From: Candidatus Fermentibacterota bacterium | GTDB taxonomy: Bacteria; JAFGKV01 | Reading direction: 5' to 3' | Length of the DNA stretch: 64,000 bases | NCBI GenBank assembly: GCA_030620115.1 | Contig: JAUXFG010000001.1 | Location: forward strand, 9,677 to 73,676 | In this document: positions 2,105 through 56,286 of the stretch, piece by piece | Layout: every line of letters starts with the position of its first letter | How positions within the stretch are numbered: the stretch's first letter is position 1 | Program-made: the position numbers and the translations under genes | The notes under the pieces: generated by a model | Seen by the model: only the letters and a program-made list of their open reading frames with translations | Told to the model about the DNA's origin: nothing | Databases searched by the model: none

Positions 2105-2272
2105 GGGGGATGGGGAAGAAGAGGCCTTCAGCGTTGAGCGTTCAGCGTTGAGATGATGGAGCAAGGAGAGATTCTTCGTTCCCTGTGGTCGCTCAGAATG
2201 ACAGTGGTAGTGCCAATGTGGATGTGTGAATGCCTGTCATTCTGAGGGAGCGGAGCGACCGAAGAATCTGGG
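2105..2272. repeat. composite palindromic repeat, family H copy 1 (cgttcag tandem units followed by the ~110-bp CAGAATGACA hairpin element)
   Basis: gagagattcttcg...GTCGCTCAGAATGACAG...(~35 nt)...TGTCATTCTGAGGGAGCGGAGCGACcgaagaatctg is a near-perfect inverted repeat. The ORF 2226..2426 (MNACHSEGAERPKNL...) is a translation artefact of it. Confidence 0.7.
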
Positions 2273-4039: not shown

Positions 4040-4267
4040 TATCTCCTCCTTGAGGGATCGACCCACGTTTATCACCCAATAGGAAAGGCATTGGGTTATG
4101 ACCTGGGTCAGGTGGTGGAAAGCGGCACTGAAGCGACTCACGGCTATCTATGACTCGTTGATTCCTGGTCAAGAGTCGTGTGTCGGTCGGAGTGGAGCTT
4201 TGCCACCCGCTTGTGGCGGGCTGGCCCAACTGGAGTATTGGAATGCTGGATTGCGGGAATGGGGAGA

Positions 4268-4352
4268 GGAGAGCGTTCAGCGTTCAGCGTTCAGATGGCA
4301 GAATGAGAAGAGGGAGAGGGTTTTTCGCTTCTTGCAGTCGCTCAGAATGACA
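4268..4352. repeat. family H repeat, partial copy (cgttcag x3 plus the left hairpin arm)
   Basis: gagcgttcagcgttcagcgttcag ... cagtcgctcagaatgacacatgtcatc. Confidence 0.55.
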
Positions 4353-4426
4353 CATGTCATCTACAAGAACCGGGCAACTCTGCTATTGACACATCTCCTG
4401 GAAGCCATATTCTGTTGCGCGTTCTC

Positions 4427-23165: not shown

Positions 23166-23972
23166 CTAATCTACTGTATCGTTTCCCAAGATGGCATTTG
23201 CGATGCGCCTGATGGAAAAGGTTTTTATGCGGCGAGGGGAAGGGACAAGCAGGCGGATATCTTCTCCTCTGAGGATCATGCGAGGAAGCGTCTCAGAGAT
23301 CACATGGAAGTACTCCTCACCCCCCAGCTTGACAACCTTTTTCACAGCGTCCTTCCAAAGACGGACCCTTGAGGAGGGACCATGCAGGTCAGAGCCGAGA
23401 AGGTGAACCAGATGATTCCTTATCAGCAGTTCAGCGAATCTCTGGACATCAGAGCCATGCAGCCCAAAAAGGCTGGCGATGTCGAGCTGAGCGAGGATGC
23501 CTTTGCAGTACCACGATCGGATCTCCTCAGTATCTCTGTGGAGCAGGTAGTATCGCGCTGGATGGGCCACAATAGGAGTTATGCCTGATTCAACCATGTG
23601 TTCGAGTACGCTCATGGAGAACCATGGAATCTCATGCAGAGGAAACTCTACGAGAGCGTATGTGTGCTGATCCGCGATGGTGAGAAGATCGCCCTTGAGG
23701 AGTCGTTCGGTCATTCCTTGGTGAACCATGATTTCGCATCCGGGAATGAGCCGTATCACGATTCCCGCATCATCCAATGTCTGCTGGAGATCCCTGGTCG
23801 CAGAGAGCAGCATGTCAGGCGTGAGCTCATAGTGCCCCGGAAGGTAATGGGAGCTTGCGACCAGCGTCTGGATACCTTGCTCAACAAGTGCCCTGGCCGC
23901 CTGGAGGGCCTCTTCTGTGGTGGCACACCCGTCATCCATACCGGGAAGAATATGAGAATGGAAGTCTATCAC
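23166..23972 (-). CDS. Mn-dependent protein-tyrosine phosphatase, CpsB/YwqE (PHP-domain) family
   Basis: MIDFHSHILPGMDDG N-terminal signature with conserved His/Asp of the PHP fold. Confidence 0.8.
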   Translation of the reverse strand: MIDFHSHILPGMDDGCATTEEALQAARALVEQGIQTLVASSHYLPGHYELTPDMLLSATRDLQQTLDDAGIVIRLIPGCEIMVHQGMTERLLKGDLLTIADQHTYALVEFPLHEIPWFSMSVLEHMVESGITPIVAHPARYYLLHRDTEEIRSWYCKGILAQLDIASLFGLHGSDVQRFAELLIRNHLVHLLGSDLHGPSSRVRLWKDAVKKVVKLGGEEYFHVISETLPRMILRGEDIRLLVPSPRRIKTFSIRRIANAILGNDTVD

Positions 23973-24061
23973 CTGCTGCTCCAGAAGGGGCCTACGAAAA
24001 ATCCAAACAAGTAAGAGCGCGCCTGTGGGTGGTCAACCTGGACAGGAATTGCGAATGAGGA

Positions 24062-24217
24062 ATGTGAAATCTGATAATCTGGAATCTGCAATCTGGAATC
24101 TGGGGAAAGGGGAGAGATTCTTCGCTCCTGTCGGTCGCTCAGAATGACAGGGGTGTGGTACGAACAGATGTGGCACTGTGTGTCATTCTGAGGAAGCGGA
24201 GCGACCGAAGAATCTGG
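24062..24217. repeat. family H composite repeat, copy 3 (gaatctg tandem units plus the CAGAATGACA hairpin element)
   Basis: aatctgataatctggaatctgcaatctggaatctg followed by gagagattcttcgctcc...GTCGCTCAGAATGACAG...TGTCATTCTGAGGAAGCGGAGCGACcgaagaatctg. Confidence 0.7.
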
Positions 24218-24404
24218 GTGGGGGGAAGGCGGGAATTGAGGAATGCGGGAAGCTCGTGAGCTATTGAGCCCTTCGACTTTGCTCAGGACAGGCTGATAAG
24301 CTGTTGAGCGGGGATGGGAAGGGAAGATTGCTGGAATGGATTGGGATTCTTTGGCACATAAGACGTCATCCGCCAAAAAATTGTAACATTCCCGATGCGT
24401 CAGA

Positions 24405-25664
24405 TTACCCCTCCTTGGCCGCATATTCCTCGTACATCCAGCGATGCCCGTGCAGAGCCCTCAGTGCTTGCTTCGCATATATATTGTAGGGCTCGTCGAT
24501 GAGTATTCTCCGAAAGACTTGTTCGATTGTCTTTTTCTTGCCCGATCTGCGGCCGATCTCGGCCAAGATCTCGTAGACCCTCCATTGGCGCTTATTCACC
24601 GCCAGGAATCGTGTGGCGATCTCCTCTGCCTTGTACATGTTGCCGCCTTCATAGTACATGGTCATTACCCGTATCCACAGTTCCCAGTGGCTCTCCCAGT
24701 ATTCCGCGAGCTGCTCATACTCTCGTGCCGCCTCCAACATCATCCCCCGCCCCTCATACCCCATCCCTGCTTGGAGATGACCCACATTGAAGATCTGCTC
24801 CCGGTGTTCGGGTTTCATGAAACAGAGAGCCGACAGCAGGAGGGACGCCGCCAGAAGTACTCCGGCGCCCTTGAGAATTACCCGTTCCCTTCTGCGGACC
24901 ATTCCATGGGCTGCGATGGCTGCCACGGCAGTCAGGGAAAAGGCAAAAAAGACCTCCCCGACCTCATCGTCTGTTGCGGTAATCGGTGCACTCATGAGCC
25001 AGGCCCCCACTGCGAAGCCGGTGGCTGCACCAAAGCTGGGAACCGGAATGCCGAGTCGATAGAGAAGGCGCCCCAGGGGCTTGATGGCCCACGCGAGCAG
25101 AGGGACACCGACACCATAGATGAGCATGAAAAGGGCGCCCATGCGCCGTGGTTGCATCCACGGAGAAGAAATATTGTGGAGTGTTACCTCCATCTGTACG
25201 TTTCGTTGGAGAAAGTACTCGGGGGGGGTGAAGCCGAAGATCCGTTGTCCCCAACTGATTTCTTCCCCGGCTACGAAGAAGCTGAAAGCCGCCATGGCGC
25301 CGCAAAAGAGCATCCCAAGCCATTGGCGTTTCCGGGAGCGCCGGAAAGAGCTTCTCCCCCATAACAAGGCGCCCCACATGAGCGTCAGGAAGCCAAACCA
25401 TTCCGGTGGCGTATCCTCCATGAGCATATAACCATAGAGGGCAGGGAAGAAGAAGAGGAGTCCGCCGAACATGAGCACCAGGAGGCCGTTGACCAGAAGC
25501 TCGGGCCTTCCGAAGCGCCGGGTATCATATGATTGGTTTCCTGTGGCGAGTTGCGAAGATTCCACCCGGTCAGGCTCCTGAGACAAGAGATGTAGAGCTT
25601 TTCCCCTTCGATGCCCCCAACTTACACGAAAGCCGTGAATTGGGAAGATCCATCCATGGCACAC
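24405..25664 (-). CDS. membrane protein with C-terminal TPR-like domain, hypothetical
   Basis: Several TM helices and a conserved EEISWGQRIFGF loop, then helical repeats. The start is uncertain. Confidence 0.45.
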   Translation of the reverse strand: MCHGWIFPIHGFRVSWGHRRGKALHLLSQEPDRVESSQLATGNQSYDTRRFGRPELLVNGLLVLMFGGLLFFFPALYGYMLMEDTPPEWFGFLTLMWGALLWGRSSFRRSRKRQWLGMLFCGAMAAFSFFVAGEEISWGQRIFGFTPPEYFLQRNVQMEVTLHNISSPWMQPRRMGALFMLIYGVGVPLLAWAIKPLGRLLYRLGIPVPSFGAATGFAVGAWLMSAPITATDDEVGEVFFAFSLTAVAAIAAHGMVRRRERVILKGAGVLLAASLLLSALCFMKPEHREQIFNVGHLQAGMGYEGRGMMLEAAREYEQLAEYWESHWELWIRVMTMYYEGGNMYKAEEIATRFLAVNKRQWRVYEILAEIGRRSGKKKTIEQVFRRILIDEPYNIYAKQALRALHGHRWMYEEYAAKEG

Positions 25665-38593: not shown

Positions 38594-39775
38594 ATGGCCG
38601 GGGCTGGCGGGAAACAAGCACTGCGCATCCTTATGCTGGCGCCCTGCCCATTCCCCACCAGCCAAGGATCGCAGACGTTGATCAGGCAGCTGGCAGCCGG
38701 CCTCCAACATCGTGGACATGAAGTCCACCTGGTGACCTATCACCATGGTGAGTACAGGGAGGAATTCGCCTTCAGCGTGCATAGGACGCCCTATTTCCCC
38801 GGCACAAGCAGGCTCAAGGCGGGGCCGAGCCTTGGCAAGCTCGTGCTTGATCTTTTCTTTTGGTACATTGCAGTGAGAGTGGCGGGAGAGATCAATCCCC
38901 ATCTTATTCACGGGCACAACTACGAGGGCGCCATTCTTGGCCATTTGGTGGCCAAGAAACGCGGCATTCCACTGATATATCACACACATAACGTGATGCA
39001 TGAAGAGCTGCCCACCTACTTCCATCAGAGGCCTCTTCGATTTTTGGCGCGGAAGGTCGGTCTATGTTTGGATAATTGGATACCGCGGCACGCCGATCAA
39101 ATCATTGCCATCAACAGGGCGCTGAGGCGGGAGCTCGTGACCATGGGGATTGATCCTGAACGGATACGGATCGTACCTCCAGGAATCTGGCCGGCGGAGT
39201 GGGAGAGAGCCGTGGAGCCCCGGCAAGAGCCTTTGGTCGTCTACACCGGCAATCTGGACAACTATCAGAACCTTTCCCTGCTGATTGAGGGTATAAGGCT
39301 GGTGAAACAGAGGATTCCTGGAGCCACGCTGAAGATCGTAAGCCATGAGACCAGACCGAGGTTGGAACGAGAAGCTCGTAAGCTGGGCATGGAAGAAGCC
39401 GTAGAATTCATCAAAGTCGATACGTTCAGTCAGGTCAAGGCGTGGATACTGCGGGCTGCGGTGGTGGTCTGCCCGCGGATACCAACGTGTGGTTACCCCA
39501 TAAAGCTTGTGAACTACCTTGCTGCGGGTAGACCGGTGGTGGTCAGCGAGGCTTCCGCAGACGGCATTGTGGATGGGGAAAGCGGGCTGGTGGTGGAAAC
39601 AGGGAATCCCGCCGCGTATGCAGAGGGTATCATCAAGCTCCTCACCGATCGAGCACTTGCGACTCGCATTGCCCGGGAAGGGAGGCGCTTGGCATCGGAG
39701 AAGCATTCATGGGATCGATCTTTGGCTGCCATCGAGGCTTCGTATCGAGCGGCATTAACCGGGGTCAAATCTTGA
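38594..39775 (+). CDS. glycosyltransferase family 4 (GT-B)
   Basis: ILMLAPCPFP N-terminal domain and the EX7E-like C-terminal region (ESGLVVETGNPAAYAEGI). The start is taken at the internal Met; the track begins at 38474. Confidence 0.75.
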   Translation: MAGAGGKQALRILMLAPCPFPTSQGSQTLIRQLAAGLQHRGHEVHLVTYHHGEYREEFAFSVHRTPYFPGTSRLKAGPSLGKLVLDLFFWYIAVRVAGEINPHLIHGHNYEGAILGHLVAKKRGIPLIYHTHNVMHEELPTYFHQRPLRFLARKVGLCLDNWIPRHADQIIAINRALRRELVTMGIDPERIRIVPPGIWPAEWERAVEPRQEPLVVYTGNLDNYQNLSLLIEGIRLVKQRIPGATLKIVSHETRPRLEREARKLGMEEAVEFIKVDTFSQVKAWILRAAVVVCPRIPTCGYPIKLVNYLAAGRPVVVSEASADGIVDGESGLVVETGNPAAYAEGIIKLLTDRALATRIAREGRRLASEKHSWDRSLAAIEASYRAALTGVKS

Positions 39776-39786
39776 CGGGCATCCTC

Positions 39787-42700
39787 ATGGCCGGGCTTGT
39801 GCTGGCAGTCATCGGAGCACCTTCGCATGGGGCTGAGGTCGAGGTTCTCAGATCAGACCAGGCGAGCATCAGGTTGCTGATCAGGCCCTCAGTGGATGAT
39901 CGGGTATGGAATGGATGGGTCGGCCTCCCTCCCGGAGCCTCGGTGGAAGAGGTGAGCGTTCGAACACAAGGGCGTGTGCGCCCGGTACCATGGGAGCTGG
40001 GCCGCGAGGTCACCACAAGTCCTCAAATCACCGTTGGTCCCGTGGGTTTCATAAGGTTCCATAGGGCTTGTCCCCTTCGGGTCGAGACAGGAATGGCTAC
40101 CCAGGACGGGGTGGCAGGAATTCCAGAGGTCCTATTGGTGGAGATCCTGCTTTCGCCAGGATCTGCCAAGGCGCGGAAACGAAATGTCGGATTTCAGAAT
40201 GTATTGTCGAATTTGTTCGTGAACTGGCAAAGCGCCCAGCATTGGGCCGAGCAGATGGACGGTCCGCCGCTTCCGCCTCCAGTGCCGGCCCCGAGCATCC
40301 GTATCCGAGTAAGAGAGGAGGGGCTCTACAGGATTACTGCAGAGGATCTTCCCGATATGCCTGGGGATGCGGATCCCCGGATGTTTTCTCTTTGGAACCG
40401 AGGGAGCTATGTTCCTTTGCGGGTGGTAGTGCAGCAGCCGGACACCGTATGGAAAGATGGTGACTGGATCGAGTTCTATGCCCACGGCACCCGGCGGGAA
40501 GATCCACAGGGACGGTGGACTCCGGTGGAAAGCAAGTATGGCCTCGATAACCCCTACTATCTCGTGTGGGACCAGGTGGATCCTCCAAGAATCCTCGATG
40601 TGTCTTCAGAGCCTACAGGCGGCCCGGCCGCTACGTATCATTGGTGGGTATGTCACCGTGAGGTGAACACGAATTCCTCACTATCGGGCCATGAGGGAGC
40701 CATCGACGATGAATGGTACTGGGGCGGACAGCTCGGCCCCGGCCAGATTTCCAAGCAGTTTTCTCTGCCAGATCTGGCGCGGGAAGTGGCGGATGGGGTG
40801 ATCCGCGCCAGATTCCAATCCATGAGCCTTTCCGAGTCTGAGATGCATCTTCTGGTGAATGGCGCCATGGTCGCAGAAGGGTCGTGGAACGGCTTCGGCG
40901 CACAGCTCTTGGAAGGTCAGGGGGTGCCGCTTGATGTGGGTACGAATCAGCTCGTTATGGATTTCTCGGGAGATGCGTACTCACGAGTTCATCTCGACTG
41001 GTTCGCAATTCAATACCCTCGAGAGTATGTCATGTCAGGGGGGCAGGCCGCGTTCGGACCATCTGCCGATGATCGCCCAGAGTACGAGATTTCTGGTTTG
41101 GAGCCTGGGACCAAGACGGATATCTTTGAGATCAGCTCAGGCCTCAGATTCATGGATTTCCACCACGAGGCGGACCAAGAAGGGGCAATCCGGTTCAGGG
41201 CTAATCTCCCGGATAGTGCGACCTTCTTGGTGGTGACGAACAGCGGTTGGCTTACTTCCCTTGATCTTCCCGACATGCCTACGTGGATCGAGCCACATCC
41301 GGCCGTGGCTGATGAGGATCGAGAAGGTAGCTATTTGATTGTGTATCCGTCTGATTTCTTAGAGGCGGCCAGCGGCCTGAGAGATCACCATCTGGACGCC
41401 GGAGATATCGAAAGTGCAGAGATGGTGGATGTGCGCCATATCTGGGAGGAGTTCTCATACGGCCTGCCGGACCCGCGAGCCTTGCGCTCATTCCTGCAAT
41501 GGACATTGGCCAATTGGAGCGATCCGCCGGAGTTCGTGCTGCTCTTTGGGGACGGCACGTGGGACTACAACGGCTACATGAACCAACACGCCAGCGTGAA
41601 TCTCGTGCCCAGCTATGGCAATCCCGCGTCTGATAATTTCTACGCGAGCCTCAACGATACGAGCTACTTCCCCGATCTACACGTCGGACGTGTGCCGGCG
41701 GTTGATGCCACTCAAGCCTGGAATGCTTTCCAAAAGATACGCAACTACCGTGCCTCTCCAGAGCCGTCGTTGTGGCGCAAGCTTGTTCTTTTTGTCAATG
41801 GCGGGGGCACACAGGATGAGTTTGACTACTTCGCGGCGTGGACATCGATCACCTCCCAGCTTGTCGTCGCACCGCCGCCGGTCCTGGGCGCCACATCGAT
41901 CATTGCTAAGGACCAGGAAGAATACTGGATGGGCTACTACAATAAGAGCATAGCCGCGGCGGTAGACTCAGGCTGTCTGATCATGAACTTCTTCGGCCAC
42001 GCCGCAACGCAGACCTGGGACTTTATGTTCGAGTCAGATGATGTTGATTCACTTCTCAACGGGGATCGTACCCCCTTGGTGCTCAGCCCTACATGCTTCA
42101 CCGGCGATTTCGCGGATCCACGCCAGGTGGTCTTCGCGGAACACTTCCTCAGATTGGACGAACCGGAGCACGGCGCAATCGGCTTTTTTGGAAGCTCCGG
42201 CACCGCGTACCAGAACAAAGGCGGGGTCTACGCCTATCGGATCATGGAGTCCATCTTTTGCAAGGGAGATCCCCGAGTCGGGCCGGCAATCACCTGGGCG
42301 AAGCTCAACGGATATCCCTACACGAGCCCTGAGGACTCGATCATGGCCACGGTATTCAGCCTGCTGGGCGATCCGCTCCTCTCCCTCGTGCTGCCCGAAG
42401 CGCCGGACCTTCACATCGGTCCGGAGAGGGTTACCGTGCAACCAGAGGAGCCGGCAGTGGGGGATAGCGTGAGGCTTCTTGTGAGCGTGCTCAATGAAGG
42501 GGTGTCATGGGAGGATGAATACCGGGTGACTGTCCACTGCGAAGGCCAGGAGCTGGCTTCAGGATTTGCCCGGGCCGATTCGCTGGAGAATCGCCTTTCC
42601 TTGTCCTGGCCTGCCCCTGCCCAACCGGGAAGCCAGGAGATCGAGATCCATGTGGACCCGGATCAGAGTGTAGAAGAGGAAGACAGGGAGGACAATACCA

Positions 42701-45700
42701 CTGCGTTGACCATAACCTACCTCAAGCGGCGCCCTGTGGTCCTCTTGCCTCTCAGCGATGCCATGGTTCCGGGAGCTCTTGCGGAATTTTTCATCACCGC
42801 AGTCTCGACGCAACCCCATGGGTTCCAGATTGCGCTTTGCGATACCTTTGGTTCCTCTGTGATCGACTCCTCCGGTCCCGTGTCGCCTGAGGCAGGCCTT
42901 GTTTCGTGGACATGGTCCTCGCCTAGTCCAGGGACCTACTGTTGGAGGGCGAGGGGCCAGGGCGGCGCATGGTCTTTTCCCAGGTGGTTCACTACTGGAG
43001 TGGAAGCAGCGGGATGGGGCCAGTTCCTTCCCGCGCAGCTGACCGGCGGGGTCATGGAAGACTGCGAAGTCACCGATCTAGGGCTTGGGTTGTACGCCAG
43101 GGTCAACATATCTCGGGATTTTGCACTGTTGTCAGAAGGCGCCACTGTTCCTGAGGTCTCGACCCACAACCCCGACGCCTGCGGCCCGGAGAATCTCATT
43201 GGAGGCCAGGTGGGGAACACCGATTGGGGCGGTTCCTTTTACTTCCGCCGGCTCGATGAGAACCAGTATGCGGTGGTGGACCTGGGAGAGCCCAGGATGA
43301 TAATAAAGATCGCCAGCGCCCATGAAGGGGATACACTCACTGACCGATCCGTATGGTCCCATTTCGGTATCGAAAGCTCGTTGAATGATGTCGATTACAA
43401 GCTGTGGGGCAATACGCCTGACTACAGCGACTCAGGCTATGGGCCATGGATTTCGAGTAACATGGCCTATGAGAAGCCGTATCCGATCTCGGTTCGGTAT
43501 ATCAAGTTCAGCTATGGACAATGTCATCCCATAGGCACAATACGGCCGGGCTCACGGGTCTATGAAGTCTATGCATATGCCGCGCTGTACCCTGATTCAG
43601 GCTCGGTCTTTTCCCCGCCCCTCGGTCCTTCTGATCAGTGGGGCAGGCTCACGGCCTTGGGCGATGTTCCAGGAGGGACCAACACGACGATCGAGGTCTA
43701 TCTGGAAGATGAGAATGGAACGTGGGAGCTGGGCAGAACTATGTCCTTGGGAGCGGATCAGGCCCTTGATTGGATCGGAGATGAGTACCGGCGCGTGAAG
43801 CTTCGTGGCGTACTCACCAGCGAGTCTATGGATGTGACGCCCAGGCTTATGAGCTGGAGCGTGGAGTATCGCTCGATCCCGGATCTTGCGACCATGCACG
43901 ATACGCTTCTCGTAGTTCCTGAGCTGCCGGAGCCTGGCAGCACGGCCCAGATTCGAGCCATAGTGATCAATGCCGGTTCAGAACCAGTTTCGGGAGCCTC
44001 GTACCGTCTCGATGCGCAGCTTGATGATGATGCGCCCACGACTCTGGAGTCGGGCGTGCTGGGATGGCTTACCCCGGGATTGCCCGAGAGTCTTTCGACC
44101 CCATGGGTTGCGGAGGGAGGCGTGACGCGTTTCACCCTGGTGCTCGACCCTGATGAAAAGATCACCGAGGCATGGGAAGAGAACAATACGGTGTATGGAG
44201 AGGCCCGTGTACTGGGCAATCTTGCCTGGATAGATAGTATCGAGGTCAGCCCTCCGGTTCCCAGTCCCAGAGAATCGCTTTCTGTAGAAGCATGGGTCGT
44301 CAATAATGGGGTTCTTGCTTTGGGCGAGAGTTGGGCACGGTGTTTCTGGGTTGGGTCGGACAGCGGAGAGATAGTCGCCATTCCCCCTCTTGCGCGTGAT
44401 GAACGAGCAAGGCTTATCTGGTCCATGGTGGCGCCCGACAGCGTGGGGTCCTATCAGCTCGCCTGTGAGCTCGATCCGGATTCCCTGGTTCGGGAAGCCT
44501 GGGAGGATGATAATATCATCTTGCTCCCTATCGAGGTTGTACAAGGCCCTGACCCGGCTCTTTTCGATGTAGATGTCTACTGTGTGACGCCCGCGGTGGG
44601 CGATCCTGTGGAGGTCGTTCTGGGATTGACGAACTTCGGTGGCCGGGATACTGAAGAGTTCCTCGTTCTTGGCCTCGAACAAGGGGTGTGGCGCGACAGT
44701 CTCTTCATTGATGGGCTCGCCGGCGCGGAGAGTACGGTGGTCTCTTTGTGGTGGCCCACCGGCGATGCGGCGCGGAGCCACTTCCTGGAGTTCCATGTCG
44801 ATCCTGACAGCTTTGTCGTTGATTGTGACCGGGCCAACAATGTCTTGACCATGGAGCTTATCACGGTTCTTCTCCCCGATCTCTACGCCGCAGGCGATAG
44901 TACGTGGCCCGCTTTTCCCATTGCAGGTGACCCCATGACCCTGCATACAGAAGTCAGGAATCGCGGCATCGTGCCTGCAGGGGGCTTCGAGGTATCCGTG
45001 CAATGGCCCGATGGGGAACAAGAGACGCAACGCGTTGATTCGCTGGGGGGCCAAGAGACGGTTCAGTTCCAGTGGGATTGGATACCCGAGACATCCGGTA
45101 GCGGTAGCGTGATCATGACCATTGATAGTGCCGGTGAGGTGGGAGAGGCATGTGAAACCAACAATGAGACGGCAATCCAGCTCCAAATAGGGCAGCCGTG
45201 GGACTTGGCTGTAGCCTCAACGGACATTCAGAAGCAAGATCCCACGGCTTCGTTCGTGGCCTGGGATTCATTGTTTCTCCACATCATCGTGCACAATGTG
45301 GGAGACGAGGCATCGCCTTCAGTGCCTGTCGAGCTTTTCGACGGCATCCCGGAATCGGACGGAACGCTTCTCAAAGCGGAGGACATGGCCTTGGCGGCAG
45401 GCGCTTCCGATACCTTGGAGGCGGTGTGGCCCGAAGGTGCTTTTCCCGGCACACATCTTCTGGTGGCGGTGCTGAACCGGCAGAATGAGATCGAAGAGTT
45501 CAATACTTCGAACAACCGGGCGAGCCGGGAGGTGGTGGTGTTGGGAGACACGATCCCTCCAGGCGTGGCGGTCAGGCCGCCGTGGCCGGGATTCGCCCAG
45601 GGCGGGTTTCTCGCTCAGGGAGACACCATTACGGCATACGGATGGGATGAAGCCAGCGGGATGAATCGCCTGGAGATTTTTCTGGATGATGCGGACATCA

Positions 45701-46155
45701 CCGAGGCATTCATCTCAGAGCCGGACTCGAGTCAGGGGATTCCAGGGATCAGAACGATTTTCCCTATTGTGGGGGGGCCTGGTGAACATCGATTGAGAGC
45801 CCGGGCTGTGGATAATGCGGGGCTATGGACAGAGGCTGAAATCCGATATACGCTTTCCCAAACCGCACTGGTACGAAATGTGGCTGCATTCCCGAGCCCC
45901 GCGTCAGGTCCTACCCGGGTCACGGCGGAACTCTCACGGCCGGGCCAGATGATTATCAGCCTCTATACCACAGGGGGCCGGTTCATCCGGCGCCTCCAGG
46001 GCGAAGCTCTCTATCCGGGCAGGGCAGGCCTGGAGTGGGACCTTCTGGACCAGGATGGTGACCGCGTGGCGAATGGCGTGTACCTTGTAAGCTTCAAATT
46101 GCAGACTGATGAAGCCAGCACGGAGGCACTAGGGAAACTCGTGGTGATGAGGTAG
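39787..46155 (+). CDS. giant secreted peptidase C25 (gingipain-like) family protein with multiple CARDB/Ig-like repeats and a C-terminal FlgD-Ig / T9SS-type sorting domain
   Basis: Signal peptide (MAGLVLAVIGAPSHGAEV). C25 core at ~41.3-42.4 kb with candidate catalytic His (NFFGHAATQTW) and Cys (SPTCFTGDFADP). At least 5 repeats ending in DN/NN motifs (REDNTTA, EDDNII, RANNVL, ETNNET, NTSNNR). The C-terminus PSPASGPTRVTAELSRPGQMIISLYTTGGRFIRRLQ...VYLVSFKLQTD...GKLVVMR resembles a Por/T9SS CTD. Confidence 0.8.
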   Translation: MAGLVLAVIGAPSHGAEVEVLRSDQASIRLLIRPSVDDRVWNGWVGLPPGASVEEVSVRTQGRVRPVPWELGREVTTSPQITVGPVGFIRFHRACPLRVETGMATQDGVAGIPEVLLVEILLSPGSAKARKRNVGFQNVLSNLFVNWQSAQHWAEQMDGPPLPPPVPAPSIRIRVREEGLYRITAEDLPDMPGDADPRMFSLWNRGSYVPLRVVVQQPDTVWKDGDWIEFYAHGTRREDPQGRWTPVESKYGLDNPYYLVWDQVDPPRILDVSSEPTGGPAATYHWWVCHREVNTNSSLSGHEGAIDDEWYWGGQLGPGQISKQFSLPDLAREVADGVIRARFQSMSLSESEMHLLVNGAMVAEGSWNGFGAQLLEGQGVPLDVGTNQLVMDFSGDAYSRVHLDWFAIQYPREYVMSGGQAAFGPSADDRPEYEISGLEPGTKTDIFEISSGLRFMDFHHEADQEGAIRFRANLPDSATFLVVTNSGWLTSLDLPDMPTWIEPHPAVADEDREGSYLIVYPSDFLEAASGLRDHHLDAGDIESAEMVDVRHIWEEFSYGLPDPRALRSFLQWTLANWSDPPEFVLLFGDGTWDYNGYMNQHASVNLVPSYGNPASDNFYASLNDTSYFPDLHVGRVPAVDATQAWNAFQKIRNYRASPEPSLWRKLVLFVNGGGTQDEFDYFAAWTSITSQLVVAPPPVLGATSIIAKDQEEYWMGYYNKSIAAAVDSGCLIMNFFGHAATQTWDFMFESDDVDSLLNGDRTPLVLSPTCFTGDFADPRQVVFAEHFLRLDEPEHGAIGFFGSSGTAYQNKGGVYAYRIMESIFCKGDPRVGPAITWAKLNGYPYTSPEDSIMATVFSLLGDPLLSLVLPEAPDLHIGPERVTVQPEEPAVGDSVRLLVSVLNEGVSWEDEYRVTVHCEGQELASGFARADSLENRLSLSWPAPAQPGSQEIEIHVDPDQSVEEEDREDNTTALTITYLKRRPVVLLPLSDAMVPGALAEFFITAVSTQPHGFQIALCDTFGSSVIDSSGPVSPEAGLVSWTWSSPSPGTYCWRARGQGGAWSFPRWFTTGVEAAGWGQFLPAQLTGGVMEDCEVTDLGLGLYARVNISRDFALLSEGATVPEVSTHNPDACGPENLIGGQVGNTDWGGSFYFRRLDENQYAVVDLGEPRMIIKIASAHEGDTLTDRSVWSHFGIESSLNDVDYKLWGNTPDYSDSGYGPWISSNMAYEKPYPISVRYIKFSYGQCHPIGTIRPGSRVYEVYAYAALYPDSGSVFSPPLGPSDQWGRLTALGDVPGGTNTTIEVYLEDENGTWELGRTMSLGADQALDWIGDEYRRVKLRGVLTSESMDVTPRLMSWSVEYRSIPDLATMHDTLLVVPELPEPGSTAQIRAIVINAGSEPVSGASYRLDAQLDDDAPTTLESGVLGWLTPGLPESLSTPWVAEGGVTRFTLVLDPDEKITEAWEENNTVYGEARVLGNLAWIDSIEVSPPVPSPRESLSVEAWVVNNGVLALGESWARCFWVGSDSGEIVAIPPLARDERARLIWSMVAPDSVGSYQLACELDPDSLVREAWEDDNIILLPIEVVQGPDPALFDVDVYCVTPAVGDPVEVVLGLTNFGGRDTEEFLVLGLEQGVWRDSLFIDGLAGAESTVVSLWWPTGDAARSHFLEFHVDPDSFVVDCDRANNVLTMELITVLLPDLYAAGDSTWPAFPIAGDPMTLHTEVRNRGIVPAGGFEVSVQWPDGEQETQRVDSLGGQETVQFQWDWIPETSGSGSVIMTIDSAGEVGEACETNNETAIQLQIGQPWDLAVASTDIQKQDPTASFVAWDSLFLHIIVHNVGDEASPSVPVELFDGIPESDGTLLKAEDMALAAGASDTLEAVWPEGAFPGTHLLVAVLNRQNEIEEFNTSNNRASREVVVLGDTIPPGVAVRPPWPGFAQGGFLAQGDTITAYGWDEASGMNRLEIFLDDADITEAFISEPDSSQGIPGIRTIFPIVGGPGEHRLRARAVDNAGLWTEAEIRYTLSQTALVRNVAAFPSPASGPTRVTAELSRPGQMIISLYTTGGRFIRRLQGEALYPGRAGLEWDLLDQDGDRVANGVYLVSFKLQTDEASTEALGKLVVMR

Positions 46156-46211: not shown

Positions 46212-46718
46212 GTGTCATTGATGAGATACCTCAGGGAAGACGGCGTTCGAATGGAACTGCAGACCGTTATGCCGACACCCGAGGAGATGGAGACAAGTGA
46301 GAGAAGCCGATGGCTTCCGGAGGTGAAGAGGGCGGTTCTCCAGGAGCTTGCCGAATTGCTGAGTACTTCCCCAGAGATCCGGAAACCCGGCAAGATCTTT
46401 ATTGACCTATACAACCGAGAGAAGCAGTGGACCACCGCACTTGGGAGAGGAGTTGCATTCCCACATGTGCGAACCAAGCATACGAGATCCCTCGTTTTTG
46501 CCATCGCACGGAGTGTTGAGGGCATTGATTTCGGGGCGCCGGATGGGGAACCGGTGCATTTTTTCCTTTGTATGGTGGCGCCACCGTACGAAGACAAGAC
46601 CTATTTGAGGTTTGTCAAGAAATTGGCCGAGGCAGTGACGTATGGCGGGCTTATTAAGCGGGCTCTGGAAGCGCAGAGTGCCTGGGAGCTGATACGGTTG
46701 GTGGACGATCTGATCTAG
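46212..46718 (+). CDS. ptsN: PTS EIIA type-2 (PtsN/EIIA-Ntr-like) regulatory protein
   Basis: GVAFPH active-site signature in a 168-aa protein. Confidence 0.7.
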   Translation: MSLMRYLREDGVRMELQTVMPTPEEMETSERSRWLPEVKRAVLQELAELLSTSPEIRKPGKIFIDLYNREKQWTTALGRGVAFPHVRTKHTRSLVFAIARSVEGIDFGAPDGEPVHFFLCMVAPPYEDKTYLRFVKKLAEAVTYGGLIKRALEAQSAWELIRLVDDLI

Positions 46719-46807
46719 CCCGCACCACGGTGCGCAGTTGATCGTGGGTTATGCGTGGTGGACCGTCTTGCGTGGGCATTGGACTCGGTCAGGCATCTCG
46801 GCCAGAG

Positions 46808-46852
46808 TAAGAGAGATTCTTCGGTCGCTCCGCTTCCTCAGAATGACACACA
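46808..46852. repeat. family H repeat, half copy (right arm, reverse orientation)
   Basis: gagattcttcggtcgctccgcttcctcagaatgacac is the reverse complement of the right arm of the hairpin element. Confidence 0.5.
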
Positions 46853-47239
46853 GCATCCAGTTTCCTCAATTCGCAATCCAGCATTTTGCTTTTCGTAACC
46901 GTTGACGGAGATATTTCAGGAAAAGCCCGGAAGTGCTTTACACTTTCGGAACCCTCCTTGCAATGACTGAGGCCCCGGTGGTCATCGCGAGCGGTAGCGC
47001 GGCGATCTCAGTTGAGGGCATGAGATTGCTTCGTCGCGGACTCAATCCTGAGCTTGCCGAAGGGCTCCTCGCAATGACTGATGGTGGGGCTACGGTTCCG
47101 GGATCTCTCTATGGGATTTTATATTCCTATCGTGAGCCGTAGCGTCAGGCCGAGACCGTAAAACGAGAAAATGAAACATCCCAATCCCCGCTCAGCAGCT
47201 TATCAGCCTGTCCTGAGCAAAGTCGAAGGGCTCAATAAC

Positions 47240-48457
47240 TCACGAGTTTCCTGCATTCCCCGTGGCGAATACCAGCCAGAGCAAGAGGAGTACTCCCGAG
47301 AAACGATGGAGCTCTCTGATCCAAGGGACAAGTTCGTCGAATATGGAGGTGATGGAAGGGATCAGAAGCAAGACCCCAGTGGCCAAGAGGAGGCTCAGGA
47401 TGACCGCCCGAAAGAAGCGCGCGGAAAGAAATTTCGGATGGGAAATCCCTCTGGGGAGCAGGAATCGGGCAGCGCATACTGCAAGGAGAATGACGCCGGC
47501 AAGCAGATGAACGTGACAGAGTGAAGAAAGTGCCCGGCCGCCACCAAAGTAGATACCCGCTCCGGTGATCAAAAGGAGGAGCATGGCGATTCCACGGATC
47601 CTCGCGGCGGGCCCTGGTGCGAATATTTGTATAAAACCATTGGCGCCGGTTCGAAGCACCCGTCGGAGATGCAGTGCAATGAGGAGGAGCAGGACCGCGA
47701 TGACGAAGATCAGCTCCGCGGCGAGACCATATCCCCATCCGGGCACTCTTCTTCCCGTCCAATGGTCAATCTGTTGGCCAAAGGTGGCGTCGGCCAACCG
47801 TCTGGAATGGCAAATCCTGCAATCTCGGAGGGATGAGGGCGCCGGCAGCACAAAATGCTCCGATCCGCCTGTCTCCAGGGGGAAGTGGCATCGCGTACAT
47901 GACACTTGCCTGAGATGTAACCCTGCTCCAGGAAAGAGCAAATGGCTCTCATTCAGCTCTCTCATTGGGTGACAACGGATGCAGGACTCATTGGTCTGTT
48001 GAGGTGGTGCACATCGTGAGATTGATGAGGAATGTGGCTCGTGGCAGGCGCCGCACGAGAAGTTCCCCATTCGGGTGACGTGAATATCCCCGCCTTGCGC
48101 AGCAAGATACTCGTTGAATGGCAGATGACTGCAAGGGGCCGGCTCTGTTCCGTGGCATGAACCGCAGGAGAGTGACGTGGAAGCGCCTGGAGGGAGGTGG
48201 GGTACGTGGGCGAATGATTCGCCATGGCACTGTATACAGCTCAAAGAACCATGATCACTCTCAAGGAATCCCTTCTCCGACAGGGGGACGGAGAATCCGA
48301 CGCCCATGCTATCCGCCTTCACGAGAGAGACCCGCTCGTGACACCCGAGACATGATGCGCTCTCGGGGGGAAGGCTCTCTCGGTTCGCTGCATTGATGAG
48401 CAGCGCGAGGATAACAAGCAAAATCGCCATCGATTCGGGACCTCCATGAGGGATCAT
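47240..48457 (-). CDS. multiheme (7x CxxCH) c-type cytochrome fused to a C-terminal polytopic membrane (putative di-heme b-type) domain; CbcL-like
   Basis: Signal peptide. Seven CxxCH motifs: CLGCH, CIQCH, CGSCH, CGACH, CIRCH, CTRCH, CRICH. Then ~5 TM helices with conserved His residues (ALHLRR, LCHVHLLAG, RELHRF). Confidence 0.7.
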   Translation of the reverse strand: MIPHGGPESMAILLVILALLINAANRESLPPESASCLGCHERVSLVKADSMGVGFSVPLSEKGFLESDHGSLSCIQCHGESFAHVPHLPPGASTSLSCGSCHGTEPAPCSHLPFNEYLAAQGGDIHVTRMGNFSCGACHEPHSSSISRCAPPQQTNESCIRCHPMRELNESHLLFPGAGLHLRQVSCTRCHFPLETGGSEHFVLPAPSSLRDCRICHSRRLADATFGQQIDHWTGRRVPGWGYGLAAELIFVIAVLLLLIALHLRRVLRTGANGFIQIFAPGPAARIRGIAMLLLLITGAGIYFGGGRALSSLCHVHLLAGVILLAVCAARFLLPRGISHPKFLSARFFRAVILSLLLATGVLLLIPSITSIFDELVPWIRELHRFSGVLLLLWLVFATGNAGNS

Positions 48458-49460: not shown

Positions 49461-49528
49461 GGGAATTGGGTGATGGAAGAATGGGGTGATGGGGTGATGG
49501 GGTGATGGGGTGATGGGGTATGGGGAGG
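49461..49528. repeat. tandem octamer array (GGGGTGAT)n
   Basis: gggtgatggaagaatggggtgatggggtgatggggtgatggggtgatggggtatgggg. Immediately preceded by the perfect palindrome CTGCCTGCgGCAGGCAG at 49443-49459. Confidence 0.8.
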
Positions 49529-52634: not shown

Positions 52635-53813
52635 ATGTACCGCATATTGGGCATCGCTCCTACGCCGTTTTTTTCTGATCGCGGCTGTCACGTCCGTATA
52701 CTTGAAGAGGCCCGGGCGCTTACCCGGCTTGGGCATGAAGTCACCATTTGCACCTACCATCTTGGCCGAGATCCCGAAGGTATCACGCTCCATCGCATCC
52801 CCCATATCCCCTGGTATTCCAAACATGATGCAGGCCCATCCTGGCACAAGTACTACATTGATATGCTTCTAACGGTGCGGGCTCTATTGAGTGGCCTTCG
52901 CGATAAGCCTGATATCGTCCATGGCCATCTTCATGAGGGGGTCTTCATCGGCTACTTCGTAAGCCGGATTCTGGATGTGCCCCTGGTATTCGACCTCCAG
53001 GGAAGCCTCACGGGGGAGATGCTTGCACACGATTTTATCTCCACCAGAGGCCTGTTCTACAGCTCCAATCGTTTCCTCGAAAAGTTGACCACGCAGATGG
53101 CTGATGTGATTCTTGCGTCCTCGGTGGGTGCAGCATCTTATCTCCAGGACGATCCCGATCTGAACGGGAAGAAGGTTCATATCGTGCCCGAAGGGATCGA
53201 TGTCCGGCCGTATGATGCCATCAAAGAGACCGAAACGCTTCGTGCTTCCTTAGGGATTTCGAGGGACGATCCGCTCTGTGTCTACATGGGAGTGCTCTAT
53301 CCATATCAGGGAATCGATGCGTTGATCCGATCGGCGCCCATTGCCCTTGAATTGTGCCCTGCTCTTCAATTTCTTGTCATCGGGTTTCCCCATGTTGAGC
53401 ACTATCGGCAGATGGCCGAGAGGCTCGGTTTGGGAGAACGGTTTCATTTTGTTGGCAAGGTTCACTACGAGAACGTGCCCGAGTACTTGAAGGCGGGCGA
53501 TCTTGCGGTTACGCCGAAGGATTCCCAGACCGAAGCAAACTCAAAGATATACAACTTCATGGCTGCAGCGCTCCCAGTGGTTGCCTACGACACCGCCACC
53601 AACCGGTCACTGCTGGGCGAGCTGGGCGTATATGTGACGCGAGGTGACGAGTCGGGGCTCGCCAAGGCGGTGGGCTCGTTGGCCGCGGACCATACGCGAA
53701 GGAAAGACCTGGGAGAGGCGGTTCGGCGCAAGGCACAGGAGGAGTTCAGCTGGATGGAGGTGGGAAGAAAGATCGTGACCGTCTACGAAGATCTGCTTCG
53801 TGGAAGAGGATAG
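52635..53813 (+). CDS. glycosyltransferase family 4 (GT-B)
   Basis: YRILGIAPTPFFSDRGCHVRILEEARAL N-domain and the C-terminal GDLAVTPKDSQTEANSKIYNFMAAALPVVAYD EX7E region. Confidence 0.8.
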   Translation: MYRILGIAPTPFFSDRGCHVRILEEARALTRLGHEVTICTYHLGRDPEGITLHRIPHIPWYSKHDAGPSWHKYYIDMLLTVRALLSGLRDKPDIVHGHLHEGVFIGYFVSRILDVPLVFDLQGSLTGEMLAHDFISTRGLFYSSNRFLEKLTTQMADVILASSVGAASYLQDDPDLNGKKVHIVPEGIDVRPYDAIKETETLRASLGISRDDPLCVYMGVLYPYQGIDALIRSAPIALELCPALQFLVIGFPHVEHYRQMAERLGLGERFHFVGKVHYENVPEYLKAGDLAVTPKDSQTEANSKIYNFMAAALPVVAYDTATNRSLLGELGVYVTRGDESGLAKAVGSLAADHTRRKDLGEAVRRKAQEEFSWMEVGRKIVTVYEDLLRGRG

Positions 53814-53825
53814 GGAGGAATGGGG

Positions 53826-53997
53826 AATATAGAATCTGCAATGTAGAATCTGAAATCTGACAATCTGGAATTTGGGGAAAGTGTGGGAGAGATTCTTCAC
53901 TCCTTGTGGTCGCTCAGAATGACAGGGGTGGTGCGCAGAAGGATGCAGTACGTTGTGTCATTCTGAGGGAGCGGAGCGACCGAAGAATCTGCGGGAG
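53826..53997. repeat. family H composite repeat, copy 5
   Basis: gaatctgcaatgtagaatctgaaatctgacaatctggaatttg then gtgggagagattcttcactcc...GTCGCTCAGAATGACAG...TGTCATTCTGAGGGAGCGGAGCGACcgaagaatctg. The ORF 53953..54270 (MCHSEGAERPKNL...) is an artefact of it. Confidence 0.7.
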
Positions 53998-54321
53998 GAG
54001 GGGGAGGATGTGGGAATGAGGATTGGGAGAAATGAACATCCAACGCCGAACGTCCAGCGTCGGAGTGGGGATGATGGAGGGCCATGCTCCGTCATGGCCG
54101 TTGATGCTCGATACGACGGACGCGATCCGCCACCTGGCGGACGTCCCTCCAGAGATGCAATACTCCTCCGGCTGAGGGCTGATAGCTGGAGATGGGAAGG
54201 AGGAGGAAGGATAAGGGAATTTGAAATTAAACAAGCTGCAATCCGGGCTAAGAGCTCAGATTGTGGGTGATCGACAACGGACCAATAGACAAATCGACGA
54301 ACTTCAAGGAGGTTTCGTGTC

Positions 54322-55971: not shown

Positions 55972-56056
55972 GAGGTTCAGGCTTCAGAGGTTCAGGGTTG
56001 AGGGTTCAGAGTTCAGAGGTTGAGGGTTCAGTGTTGAGGGTTCAGGGTTCAGTCCG
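55972..56056. repeat. tandem octamer array (GGTTCAG/GGTTGAG)n, ~11 units
   Basis: aggttcaggcttcagaggttcagggttgagggttcagagttcagaggttgagggttcagtgttgagggttcagggttcag. Confidence 0.8.
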
Positions 56057-56148
56057 GCCACTGATGGCGCCGCGCCATCAGGTTTTTCAAGGCAGAGAGT
56101 ACAGCAAATATGAAATGTACTCTCAAAGAAGACAACGGAGGAAGGATG

Positions 56149-56258
56149 TGGGAGAGATTCTTCGCTCCTTGGAATCGCTCAGAATGACAGTGGAAGTGTG
56201 CAGAAGTATGTGGCATTGCGTGTCATTCTGAGGGAGCAATGCGACTGAAGAATCTGGG
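56149..56258. repeat. family H hairpin element, copy 6
   Basis: gtgggagagattcttcgctcc...ATCGCTCAGAATGACAG...TGTCATTCTGAGGGAGCAATGCGACtgaagaatctg. Confidence 0.7.
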
Positions 56259-56286
56259 TGGGGATTGGGGGGGGAAGAAGGCTTCA

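Follow-up and report, generated by a model that had tools for sequence, protein, structure and literature searches.

The window analysed here is a 64-kb stretch of DNA from a Candidatus Fermentibacterota bacterium (contig JAUXFG010000001.1), in which a hairpin element, Family H, had been predicted to occur in four full and two partial copies, all intergenic. The genes flanking the element are ordinary chromosomal genes, encoding an SNF symporter, CpsB, a group-1 glycosyltransferase, a parvulin peptidyl-prolyl isomerase (PPIase), a methyltransferase, PTS EIIA and a multihaem cytochrome, and the flanking gene calls bore out the intergenic placement of every copy. The repeated entity is a unit of 33-45 nt, not a hairpin of 110 bp, and two different variants of this unit joined tail-to-tail give an imperfect hairpin of ~103 nt. 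Family H is probably best described as doublets of units of the repetitive extragenic palindrome (REP) type, in which two variants stand tail-to-tail around a 31-nt spacer, and as non-autonomous selfish DNA.

The core decamer of the element (CAGAATGACA) was matched 14 times in the window at ≤1 mismatch, compared with 4.4 ± 2.0 in shuffled sequences (0 of 100 shuffles reached 14), and the 33-nt right arm gave four matches at ≤3 mismatches with an expectation of 0. Units were then counted with a covariance model (CM) of the unit, which returned nine strong units (E ≤ 3e-8) and one decayed unit (E = 0.02); the four full and two partial copies were thereby confirmed at their sites, far beyond chance. 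The nine strong units are 37 nt each and without exception intergenic, and eight of them pair into four doublets with their tags pointing inward (tail-to-tail). On the plus strand the four doublets share one layout (variant A, 31 nt, variant B), and these tail-to-tail heterodimers are the sole arrangement of strong doublets in the window. The units and doublets were located as follows.

2168-2270 (+): doublet 1, with unit A at 2168-2204 (+), a 31-nt spacer and unit B at 2234-2270 (-); CM scores of 41.2 and 41.1 bits.
24114-24216 (+): doublet 2, with unit A at 24114-24150 (+) and unit B at 24180-24216 (-); CM scores of 44.8 and 37.6 bits.
53889-53991 (+): doublet 3, the copy singled out in the original prediction, with unit A at 53889-53925 (+) and unit B at 53955-53991 (-); CM scores of 40.2 and 39.9 bits.
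56154-56256 (+): doublet 4, the most diverged, with unit A at 56154-56190 (+) and unit B at 56220-56256 (-); CM scores of 44.8 and 35.3 bits.
46813-46849 (+): an intact unit of type B (right arm) that stands alone; CM score of 39.6 bits, E = 1.2e-9, one mismatch to the 33-mer.
4317-4353 (+): a decayed single unit of the A (left-arm) type, upstream of tRNA-Pro; CM score of 15.8 bits, E = 0.02.
46980-47079 (no strand assigned): a probable diverged head-to-head pair of the same superfamily, found by a structural pattern scan and a weak CM match of 12.4 bits.

Stable folding of the four full hairpins was confirmed, with RNA energies of -41 to -50 kcal/mol and z of -2.8 to -4.6 (doublet 1, -49.2 kcal/mol, z -4.6; doublets 2 and 3, -49.5 kcal/mol each; doublet 4, -41.2 kcal/mol, z -2.75), and the reverse strands were nearly as stable; folded as DNA, doublet 3 gave -24.6 kcal/mol (z -4.9). 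The near-perfect hairpin of ~110 bp that had been described is real, but its proper length is ~103 nt (e.g. 53889-53991), the earlier coordinates having taken in the adjoining array, and because its arms are different unit variants it is imperfect in the middle third. Its loop, given as ~35 nt and variable, does vary in sequence (55% identity among the copies) but is of constant length, with 31 nt between TGACA and TGTCA in all four copies; in doublet 1 these two tags (TGACA/TGTCA) point inward. Alignment of the four copies showed the invariant blocks GGAGAGATTCTTC, TCGCTCAGAATGACAG, TGTCATTCTGAGG and GAAGAATCTG, and identity was 89-92% in the arms, 26% in the 5′ flank and 41% in the 3′ flank, the last being a compositional effect of G-richness, with the flanks otherwise random. 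Both sites described as half copies are real as well, but the one at 46813-46849 is an intact right-arm-type unit in the opposite orientation and the one at 4317-4353 is a left-arm-type unit that has decayed. The structural pattern scan of the window yielded 11 matches, compared with 0-1 in shuffled sequences; the pair at 46980-47079 consists of an ATCGC/GCGAT unit (46980-47009, -), a 12-nt spacer and an ATTGC/GCAAT unit (47022-47079, +) that contains a nested inner hairpin.

On its purine-rich strand the unit is composed of the unpaired tag TGTC, ATTCT, GA, an inner mini-hairpin (e.g. GC-GNA-GC), GA, AGAAT and the tail CTN; a short example, TGTC-ATTCT-GA-GC-GNA-GC-GA-AGAAT-CTC, comprises a 5-bp stem, tandem G.A and the GC-GNA-GC mini-hairpin. 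In the other orientation the unit reads GAG-A-NN-CT-TC-[inner hairpin]-TC-AG-N'N'-T-GACA. The tag TGTC stands beside the stem in all strong units of the window, and short-form relatives have ATTCTGAG / CGAAGAAT around CGAAG with two G.A pairs, which agrees with the stem of 8-9 bp and loop of 4-5 nt published for CGTC-tagged REPs. When 225 units were gathered with a pattern that left two stem positions (NN) free, these positions were TT/AA in 185 units, TC/GA in 21, CC/GG in 9, TG/CA in 4 and CT/AG in 1, and were non-complementary in only 5. The inner part fell into three main classes (7 nt, GC-TNC-GC; 15 nt, GGTCGC-TNC-GCTCCC; 17 nt, ACTCCGC-TNC-GCTCCGT), and inner parts of unrelated sequence were still hairpins (e.g. 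GGGCAC-TTCG-GTGCCC and GGCCCGC-CGA-GCGGGCC). In an alignment of 70 sequences (A3), 98.8% of cells were paired, falling to 29-47% in slid controls, and both sides had changed in 76 cells, compared with 17.6 ± 6.6 in shuffles (0 of 500). Two inner pairs lying outside the selection pattern also covaried (GC 56, AU 8 and CG 3; CG 46, GC 15, UG 3, UA 2 and GU 1), and all 70 aligned units had A-T as the first stem pair, the second being T-A in 58 and C-G in 12.

Pairing within units was further compared with pairing between them in 126 inverted pairs, gathered with no filter for complementarity; the search pattern fixed one partner in most pairs and left the other free. As many as 240 of the 252 units were self-complementary at the variable positions, whereas only 57 of the 126 pairs had partners of one stem type, and in 64 the partners differed in both halves. 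Selection or homogenisation therefore acts on the stem-loop of each unit and not on pairing between the arms, and what has been conserved is the small stem-loop of the unit rather than the long hairpin of the doublet.

The tag and the stem base are strictly conserved across phyla, as would be expected if the units were duplex DNA sites for a conserved chromosomal protein (a nucleoid-associated protein, gyrase or a recombinase), in the manner of E. coli REPs and bacterial interspersed mosaic elements (BIMEs) with gyrase and integration host factor, and a dimeric protein bound to an inverted repeat could also give paired changes in the half-sites. At least five complementary stem variants coexist, however, often inside one doublet, and inner hairpins of unrelated sequence are tolerated, so that base pairing fits better than sequence-specific recognition of the duplex; no candidate protein was identified, and we consider this explanation highly improbable.

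The distribution of the unit beyond the window was examined by scanning one genome per species with the 33-nt right-arm pattern, the matches being a lower bound. At least 111 stretches from >10 phyla were obtained; Clostridia, Desulfobaccales, Dehalococcoidia, Anaerolineales, Planctomycetota, Bacteroidota, Ignavibacteria, Calditrichales and the Candidate Phyla Radiation (CPR) were among the matches listed, together with others. The unit belongs to a superfamily spanning many bacterial phyla and is not specific to the source genome, a point absent from the original prediction. Elsewhere, the arm usually has an inverted partner after 4-85 nt in the geometry opposite to that of the window, which identifies the unit of 33-45 nt as the basic repeat; over 192 loci (411 units), the arrangements were head-to-head in 108, tail-to-tail in 18 and tandem in 20, and units were also found singly. 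Tail-to-tail doublets with spacers of 27-35 nt were present in at least 120 metagenome stretches, many with palindromic spacers or flanks. The short-form pattern was found in 82 stretches of IMG/VR viral contigs, several of which had 2-4 copies, while the window element itself was not matched in PLSDB plasmids and had a single marginal match among GenBank phages. Several intergenic REP units each are carried by the members of one group of related viral contigs (IMG/VR loci L119-L200), which have in common a portal protein (phrog_64) as well as a number of protein families without a Pfam or PHROG match; such contigs are possible vehicles for spread between hosts. A literature text search for the element sequence and its spurious peptides matched only unrelated primers.

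The history of the insertion sites was assessed by comparison with relatives. The PPIase of the window had homologues of 49-56% identity, one of them from a Candidatus Fermentibacteria metagenome-assembled genome (MAG), which placed the source organism next to Candidatus Fermentibacteria, and the PPIase loci of three Fermentibacteria relatives were syntenic with the window over >10 genes. The glycosyltransferase-PPIase spacer, which holds doublet 3, is 508 nt long in the window and 39-43 nt in these relatives, and the PPIase-methyltransferase spacer, which holds doublet 4, is 366 nt long, compared with 102 nt or overlapping genes. No units were present anywhere in the 7-22-kb loci of the three relatives. 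This comparison, which spans a large evolutionary distance, shows that the units were gained in the window lineage. The PTS-EIIA-cytochrome spacer of the window is 521 nt of repeats, and in two related lineages a DnaJ-domain gene is located there (upstream of the cytochrome gene in loci L116-L118, with PTS-EIIA just before it in L116), so the gene was apparently lost or replaced in the window lineage.

Target-site duplications (TSDs) were sought at the junctions. None was present at the copies of the window, where the two flanks share merely G-richness, and none was found at 103 inverted pairs elsewhere, 72 of which had no direct repeat of ≥2 nt at the junction; the flanks of inverted pairs elsewhere often continue the palindrome. 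The elements are intergenic, mostly downstream of genes, and absent from the same sites in relatives, and they have no TSD or linked gene.

These data bear on whether Family H is a classical miniature inverted-repeat transposable element (MITE), i.e. a deletion derivative of a DDE-type insertion sequence (IS) whose arms are terminal inverted repeats and which moves by cut-and-paste with a TSD. The size of ~105 bp, the inverted termini (AGATTCTTCG/CGAAGAATCT), the dispersed, intergenic, multi-copy occurrence and the empty syntenic sites in relatives would all suit such an element. Besides the missing duplications, however, the arms are found as singlets, as inverted pairs of either geometry and as tandem copies, they are constant while the interior diverges, the same arm is present in >10 phyla, and no transposase was found beside any unit; a classical MITE is therefore very unlikely. 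What survives of the earlier proposal of a MITE-like mobile element is that Family H is dispersed, non-coding and intergenic and behaves like non-autonomous selfish DNA.

Gene orientation around the units was tabulated in the GTDB loci, where the gene calls are crude: 38 units lay between co-directional, 28 between convergent and 10 between divergent genes, compared with a background of 65:17:18%, so that units between convergent genes were enriched (28 of 76 vs 17% expected) and those between divergent genes depleted. In the window, doublet 1 lies between an open reading frame (ORF; 1643-2086, +) and the SNF symporter gene (2492-4141, -), and doublet 4 is flanked by the PPIase gene (+) and the methyltransferase gene (-). 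The two neighbours of doublet 2, a cpsB-like gene (23166-23972, -) and an ORF (24405-25664, -), are both on the minus strand.

The enrichment between convergent genes, the very stable folds and a stem covariation compatible with RNA would agree with a functional RNA module, in which the hairpins act as 3′-end stabilisers, RNase sites or factor-dependent terminators and have been multiplied for that reason, and Di Nocera, De Gregorio & Rocco 2013 (PMC3733652) make the same argument for REPs. Against this stand several results. No Rfam family other than four tRNAs was found in the whole window at the gathering score, and a permissive scan over 53780-54060 gave nothing meaningful even at E ≤ 10. 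None of the hairpins scanned with a terminator consensus (doublets 1, 3 and 4 and the decayed unit) was called, since they lack a T-run and their 3′ flank is G-rich, and the terminator module that had been proposed is contradicted by this result. Doublet 2 has the same plus orientation as the others despite its minus-strand neighbours, a terminator-like site precedes doublet 4, partial tandem arrays of units are found as well, and the covariation maintains the small unit and not the long hairpin that would dominate in RNA. As the primary explanation of Family H, an RNA module is thus unlikely.

Candidates of other kinds were rejected: the motifs of the hammerhead or other ribozyme cores, CRISPR repeats and integron attC sites do not fit, and a sigma-70 promoter inside the unit was dropped because of a spacing of 14 or 22 nt.

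Tandem arrays and G-rich tracts adjoin the doublets, the arrays having been delimited with Tandem Repeats Finder.

2130-2152 (+): heptamer array AGCGTTG x3.3, immediately 5′ of doublet 1.
4272-4294 (+): heptamer array AGCGTTC x3.3, which continues into CAGAATGAGA and the decayed unit.
24059-24103 (+): heptamer array GGAATCT x6.3, upstream of doublet 2, repeating the unit head end GAATCTG.
53825-53871 (+): heptamer array AATCTGA, upstream of doublet 3.
55974-56052 (+): heptamer array GGTTCAG x11 (score 98), ~100 nt upstream of doublet 4.
53992-54035 (+): G-rich purine tract 3′ of doublet 3.

Arrays had been reported in front of all full copies; they immediately precede copies 1-3 as well as the decayed copy, but that of copy 4 is ~100 nt away and is separated from the doublet by a terminator-like hairpin at 56061-56090 (9 bp, 6 GC, then GTTTTT) downstream of the PPIase gene. 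The G-rich tracts said to follow the full copies are indeed present 3′ of all four doublets, the others being at 2271-2295, 24217-24250 and 56257-56280. The heptamer arrays resemble stuttered unit ends: (G/A/C)AATCTG equals the head end of the unit, and the CGTTCAG heptamer equals the segment ...CGTTCAG|AATGACA of one unit class, the array of 4272-4310 running straight into CAGAATGAGA. Arrays of period 7 accounted for 27% of the tandem arrays found in genome loci with units, compared with 5% in unit-free controls. Heptamer arrays next to units were not enriched in the metagenome tail-to-tail set, and a universal link between unit and heptamer, which holds in the window and the GTDB loci, was rejected accordingly.

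Partial tandem repeats of the tag and 5′ stem (period of about 26-33 nt) precede many units, as in the related IMG/VR contigs of L174, L194, L125 and L133 and in L022, L030, L043, L235 and L201 (19960-20010). At one homologous site in four related viral contigs, the 26-nt partial tandem repeat was present in 2, 3, 3 and 4 copies, which indicates ongoing slippage rather than transposition. In Desulfobaccales loci (L098 4360-4600, L033 460-700 and others), a composite palindrome of ~240 nt was observed, in the order GTTCCAA-like heptamers, GAGACCTCTGCGAAAGTC hairpin, unit, conserved spacer of ~75 nt, inverted unit, hairpin and heptamers, with many copies in Desulfobacca-like MAGs.

A second repeat family of ~70 nt lies at 24250-24320 (+) and 47180-47250 (-) of the window, with the core GAGCCCTTCGACTTTGCTCAGGACAGGCT identical in both; it has a CTTCG...CTCAG skeleton like that of the REP unit, and both copies are in spacers that also carry Family H units. 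The 521-nt spacer at 46718-47240 is made only of repeats (the single unit, the diverged head-to-head pair and the 70-nt repeat). Further along, G-rich purine tracts and an 8-mer array (ATGGGGTG x5.8) were observed at 49463-49525; GGGG runs, potentially able to form G-quadruplexes, are abundant on the plus strand of the intergenic DNA of this genome. A promoter-like TTGACA-16-TATTCT at 4386-4413 lies just after the decayed unit and just before tRNA-Pro(GGG), and tRNA genes at 4426, 6664, 8105 and 9963 are interleaved with surE, pcm and others over 5.6 kb. An ORF of 2148 aa occupies 39709-46155, and the strong Peptidase_C25 and CARDB matches from the bulk Pfam scan are probably its own.

If Family H consists of REP-type doublets, its mode of spread may be approached by analogy: we infer that a trans-acting enzyme would recognise the folded single-stranded unit (tag plus hairpin), as the HUH/Y1 REP-associated tyrosine transposases (RAYTs) do for GTAG REPs, and the chemistry of RAYTs and IS200/IS605, which serves as the analogue, likewise leaves no TSD. 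Local slippage would yield the adjoining heptamer and partial-unit arrays. After insertion, the units would ride in 3′ untranslated regions, where doublets would be tolerated and perhaps useful, in that their strong hairpin could act as a buffer against mRNA decay or read-through; the elements may also serve as 3′ hairpins of transcripts.

The unit is nearly identical over many phyla and occurs also on phage contigs, and a second view of the family starts from this uniformity. The TGTC/CGTC hairpin unit might be one nearly pan-bacterial selfish or structural element, conserved to the nucleotide over >10 phyla including CPR and carried on phage contigs too, that persists without a dedicated transposase, an idea we put forward tentatively and hold to be unlikely. 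Were it true, a so far undescribed mechanism would propagate or regenerate the unit, candidates being host replication and repair or template switching on a folded single strand, leaving the heptamer and partial-unit stutter arrays, and an unrecognised, widely shared trans-acting nuclease.

With regard to annotation, the unit explains swollen intergenic spacers and a large class of look-alike spurious ORFs in MAGs (peptides such as ...HSEGAERPKNL...). The tagged-REP superfamily is extended to a Fermentibacteria-like lineage, many uncultivated phyla and viral contigs, and the question raised in 2013, how CGTC-type REPs spread and stay uniform without a transposase of their own, is sharpened. 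The near-identity of the unit across phyla and phage contigs, together with the stutter arrays at unit ends, is the most interesting residue of the analysis.

Among known systems, the closest correspondence was with the CGTC superfamily of REPs. In Di Nocera et al. 2013 (PMC3733652), two REP superfamilies are distinguished by an unpaired tag, GTAG or CGTC; TGTC is given as a common variant of the CGTC tag, and the stem starts with A-T, both positions having their complement on the other side. CGTC REPs are described there as having a stem of 8-9 bp, a loop of 4-5 nt and an unpaired 3-nt tail with the consensus CCA; their dimers are predominantly head-to-head and rarely tail-to-tail with variable spacers, heterodimers are frequent, and some dimers are nested in longer palindromes. 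According to the same paper (PMC3733652), CGTC REPs lie between unidirectional and convergent ORFs in five phyla, no transposase is associated with them, and the superfamily takes in Neisseria dRS3, Rickettsia RPE-4/6 and rhizobial units. The present family agrees with nearly all of this and is alike in the TGTC tag beside the stem, the A-T start of the stem, the presence of a tail (which reads CTG or CTC), the heterodimers (64 of 126 pairs heterotypic) and the absence of a transposase in the loci searched, as well as in the excess of head-to-head over tail-to-tail arrangements (108 vs 18), the variable spacers of tail-to-tail dimers, the nesting of some dimers in larger palindromes, the location between unidirectional or convergent ORFs, the occurrence in several phyla and the partial tandem stutter of tag and 5′ stem. 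Its hosts go beyond the five published phyla and include Fermentibacteria-like bacteria, Chloroflexota, Desulfobacterota, Bacillota, Planctomycetota and CPR, plus viral contigs; the window, in contrast, shows just the rare tail-to-tail arrangement.

A direct point of contact was provided by CGTCATCCTCGGGCTTGACCCGAGGATCCA, a bona fide alpha-proteobacterial (rhizobial) CGTC REP unit. It was found at 603 unannotated places in 224 plasmids, and GTCATCCT...AGGATC is common to it and to the ATCCT variant of the family. In a Shinella plasmid (locus L201), two CGTCATCCTCGGGCTTGACCCGAGGATCCA units stand head-to-head as a dimer, in front of which the tag and stem are repeated as partial tandem copies. 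From these features and the weak profile similarity, the element fits a TGTC-tagged REP family of the CGTC superfamily with REPIN-like tail-to-tail heterodimers, and was filed as such.

Several observations weigh against reading Family H as mobile REP-type DNA of the CGTC superfamily. The stems of the window are longer than those published and interrupted (5 bp, GA/GA and an inner hairpin of 13-15 nt vs 8-9 bp and a 4-5-nt loop), the tail is CTG/CTC instead of CCA, and the assignment was made against published descriptions of features; when 40 kb of the Shinella plasmid were searched with the CM, the top two matches were the units of the dimer, at a weak 12.9 bits (E about 0.1). A tblastn search with the TnpA proteins of IS200 and IS608 gave nothing in the window and 1.6 Mb of unit-bearing loci, although a divergent RAYT could be missed by it, and no transposase family was seen among the window ORFs examined with Pfam, for which the bulk scan gave the top 25 families. 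No recurrent transposase-like ORF was present near units in ~2.5 Mb of loci (8-15-kb loci plus the window): all-against-all clustering of the ORFs near units gave just housekeeping families (aminotransferase, ABC-F, MTHFR, CCA-adding enzyme and histidine kinase), in ≤6 of 111 genome loci, and in a larger locus set phage structural genes shared by related viral contigs were the sole other recurrent neighbours. Comparison of insertions showed the sites empty in the three distant relatives, but no filled and empty alleles were seen between close relatives among all fetched loci, where merely the copy number of the 26-nt partial repeat differed. The orientation of units was not significantly biased with respect to the local GC skew (58:41, p = 0.11), although a mechanism acting on lagging-strand single-stranded DNA might predict such a bias. 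Finally, the isolated unit hairpin reached only -1.6 to -2.5 kcal/mol by nearest-neighbour energies, not above shuffles, so the reality of the unit rests on covariation and not on energy.

REPINs (Bertels & Rainey 2011, PMC3116915; Nunvar 2010) resemble the doublets in that two inverted REPs flank a spacer of fixed length, the REPs are more conserved than the spacer, singlets are more decayed, the elements are extragenic, and two alternative folds, a long hairpin or two small hairpins, can be formed (PMC3116915). REPINs differ in having a GTAG tag, in being species-specific and in adjoining a cognate single-copy RAYT gene (PMC3116915), whereas Family H has the TGTC tag and a unit common to many phyla, and no RAYT was found by tblastn in the loci searched. 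The REPs and BIMEs of E. coli are likewise imperfect palindromes of ~35 nt in alternating orientation downstream of genes, for which mRNA stabilisation and gyrase binding have been proposed, but by description their sequences are unrelated and they are restricted to enterobacteria. MITEs such as the Correia elements of Neisseria, Nezha and Chunjie are also small, non-coding and dispersed, with inverted termini and hairpin-forming transcripts; they differ in that TSDs flank them and that a parent insertion sequence shares their termini, whereas Family H yielded neither. The cyanobacterial small dispersed repeats (SDRs) of Elhai et al. 2008 are reportedly hairpin repeats of 21-27 nt with compensatory changes, often located in heptamer (short tandemly repeated repetitive, STRR) sequences or nested; Family H shares with them very small covarying hairpin repeats among heptamer arrays, but SDRs are confined to a cyanobacterial subgroup and have other sequences, and the heptamer association of the present family, evident in the window and among Desulfobaccales, does not extend to the metagenome set. 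Set beside these systems, Family H is not a new kind of element and adds to the known but poorly understood class of REPs.

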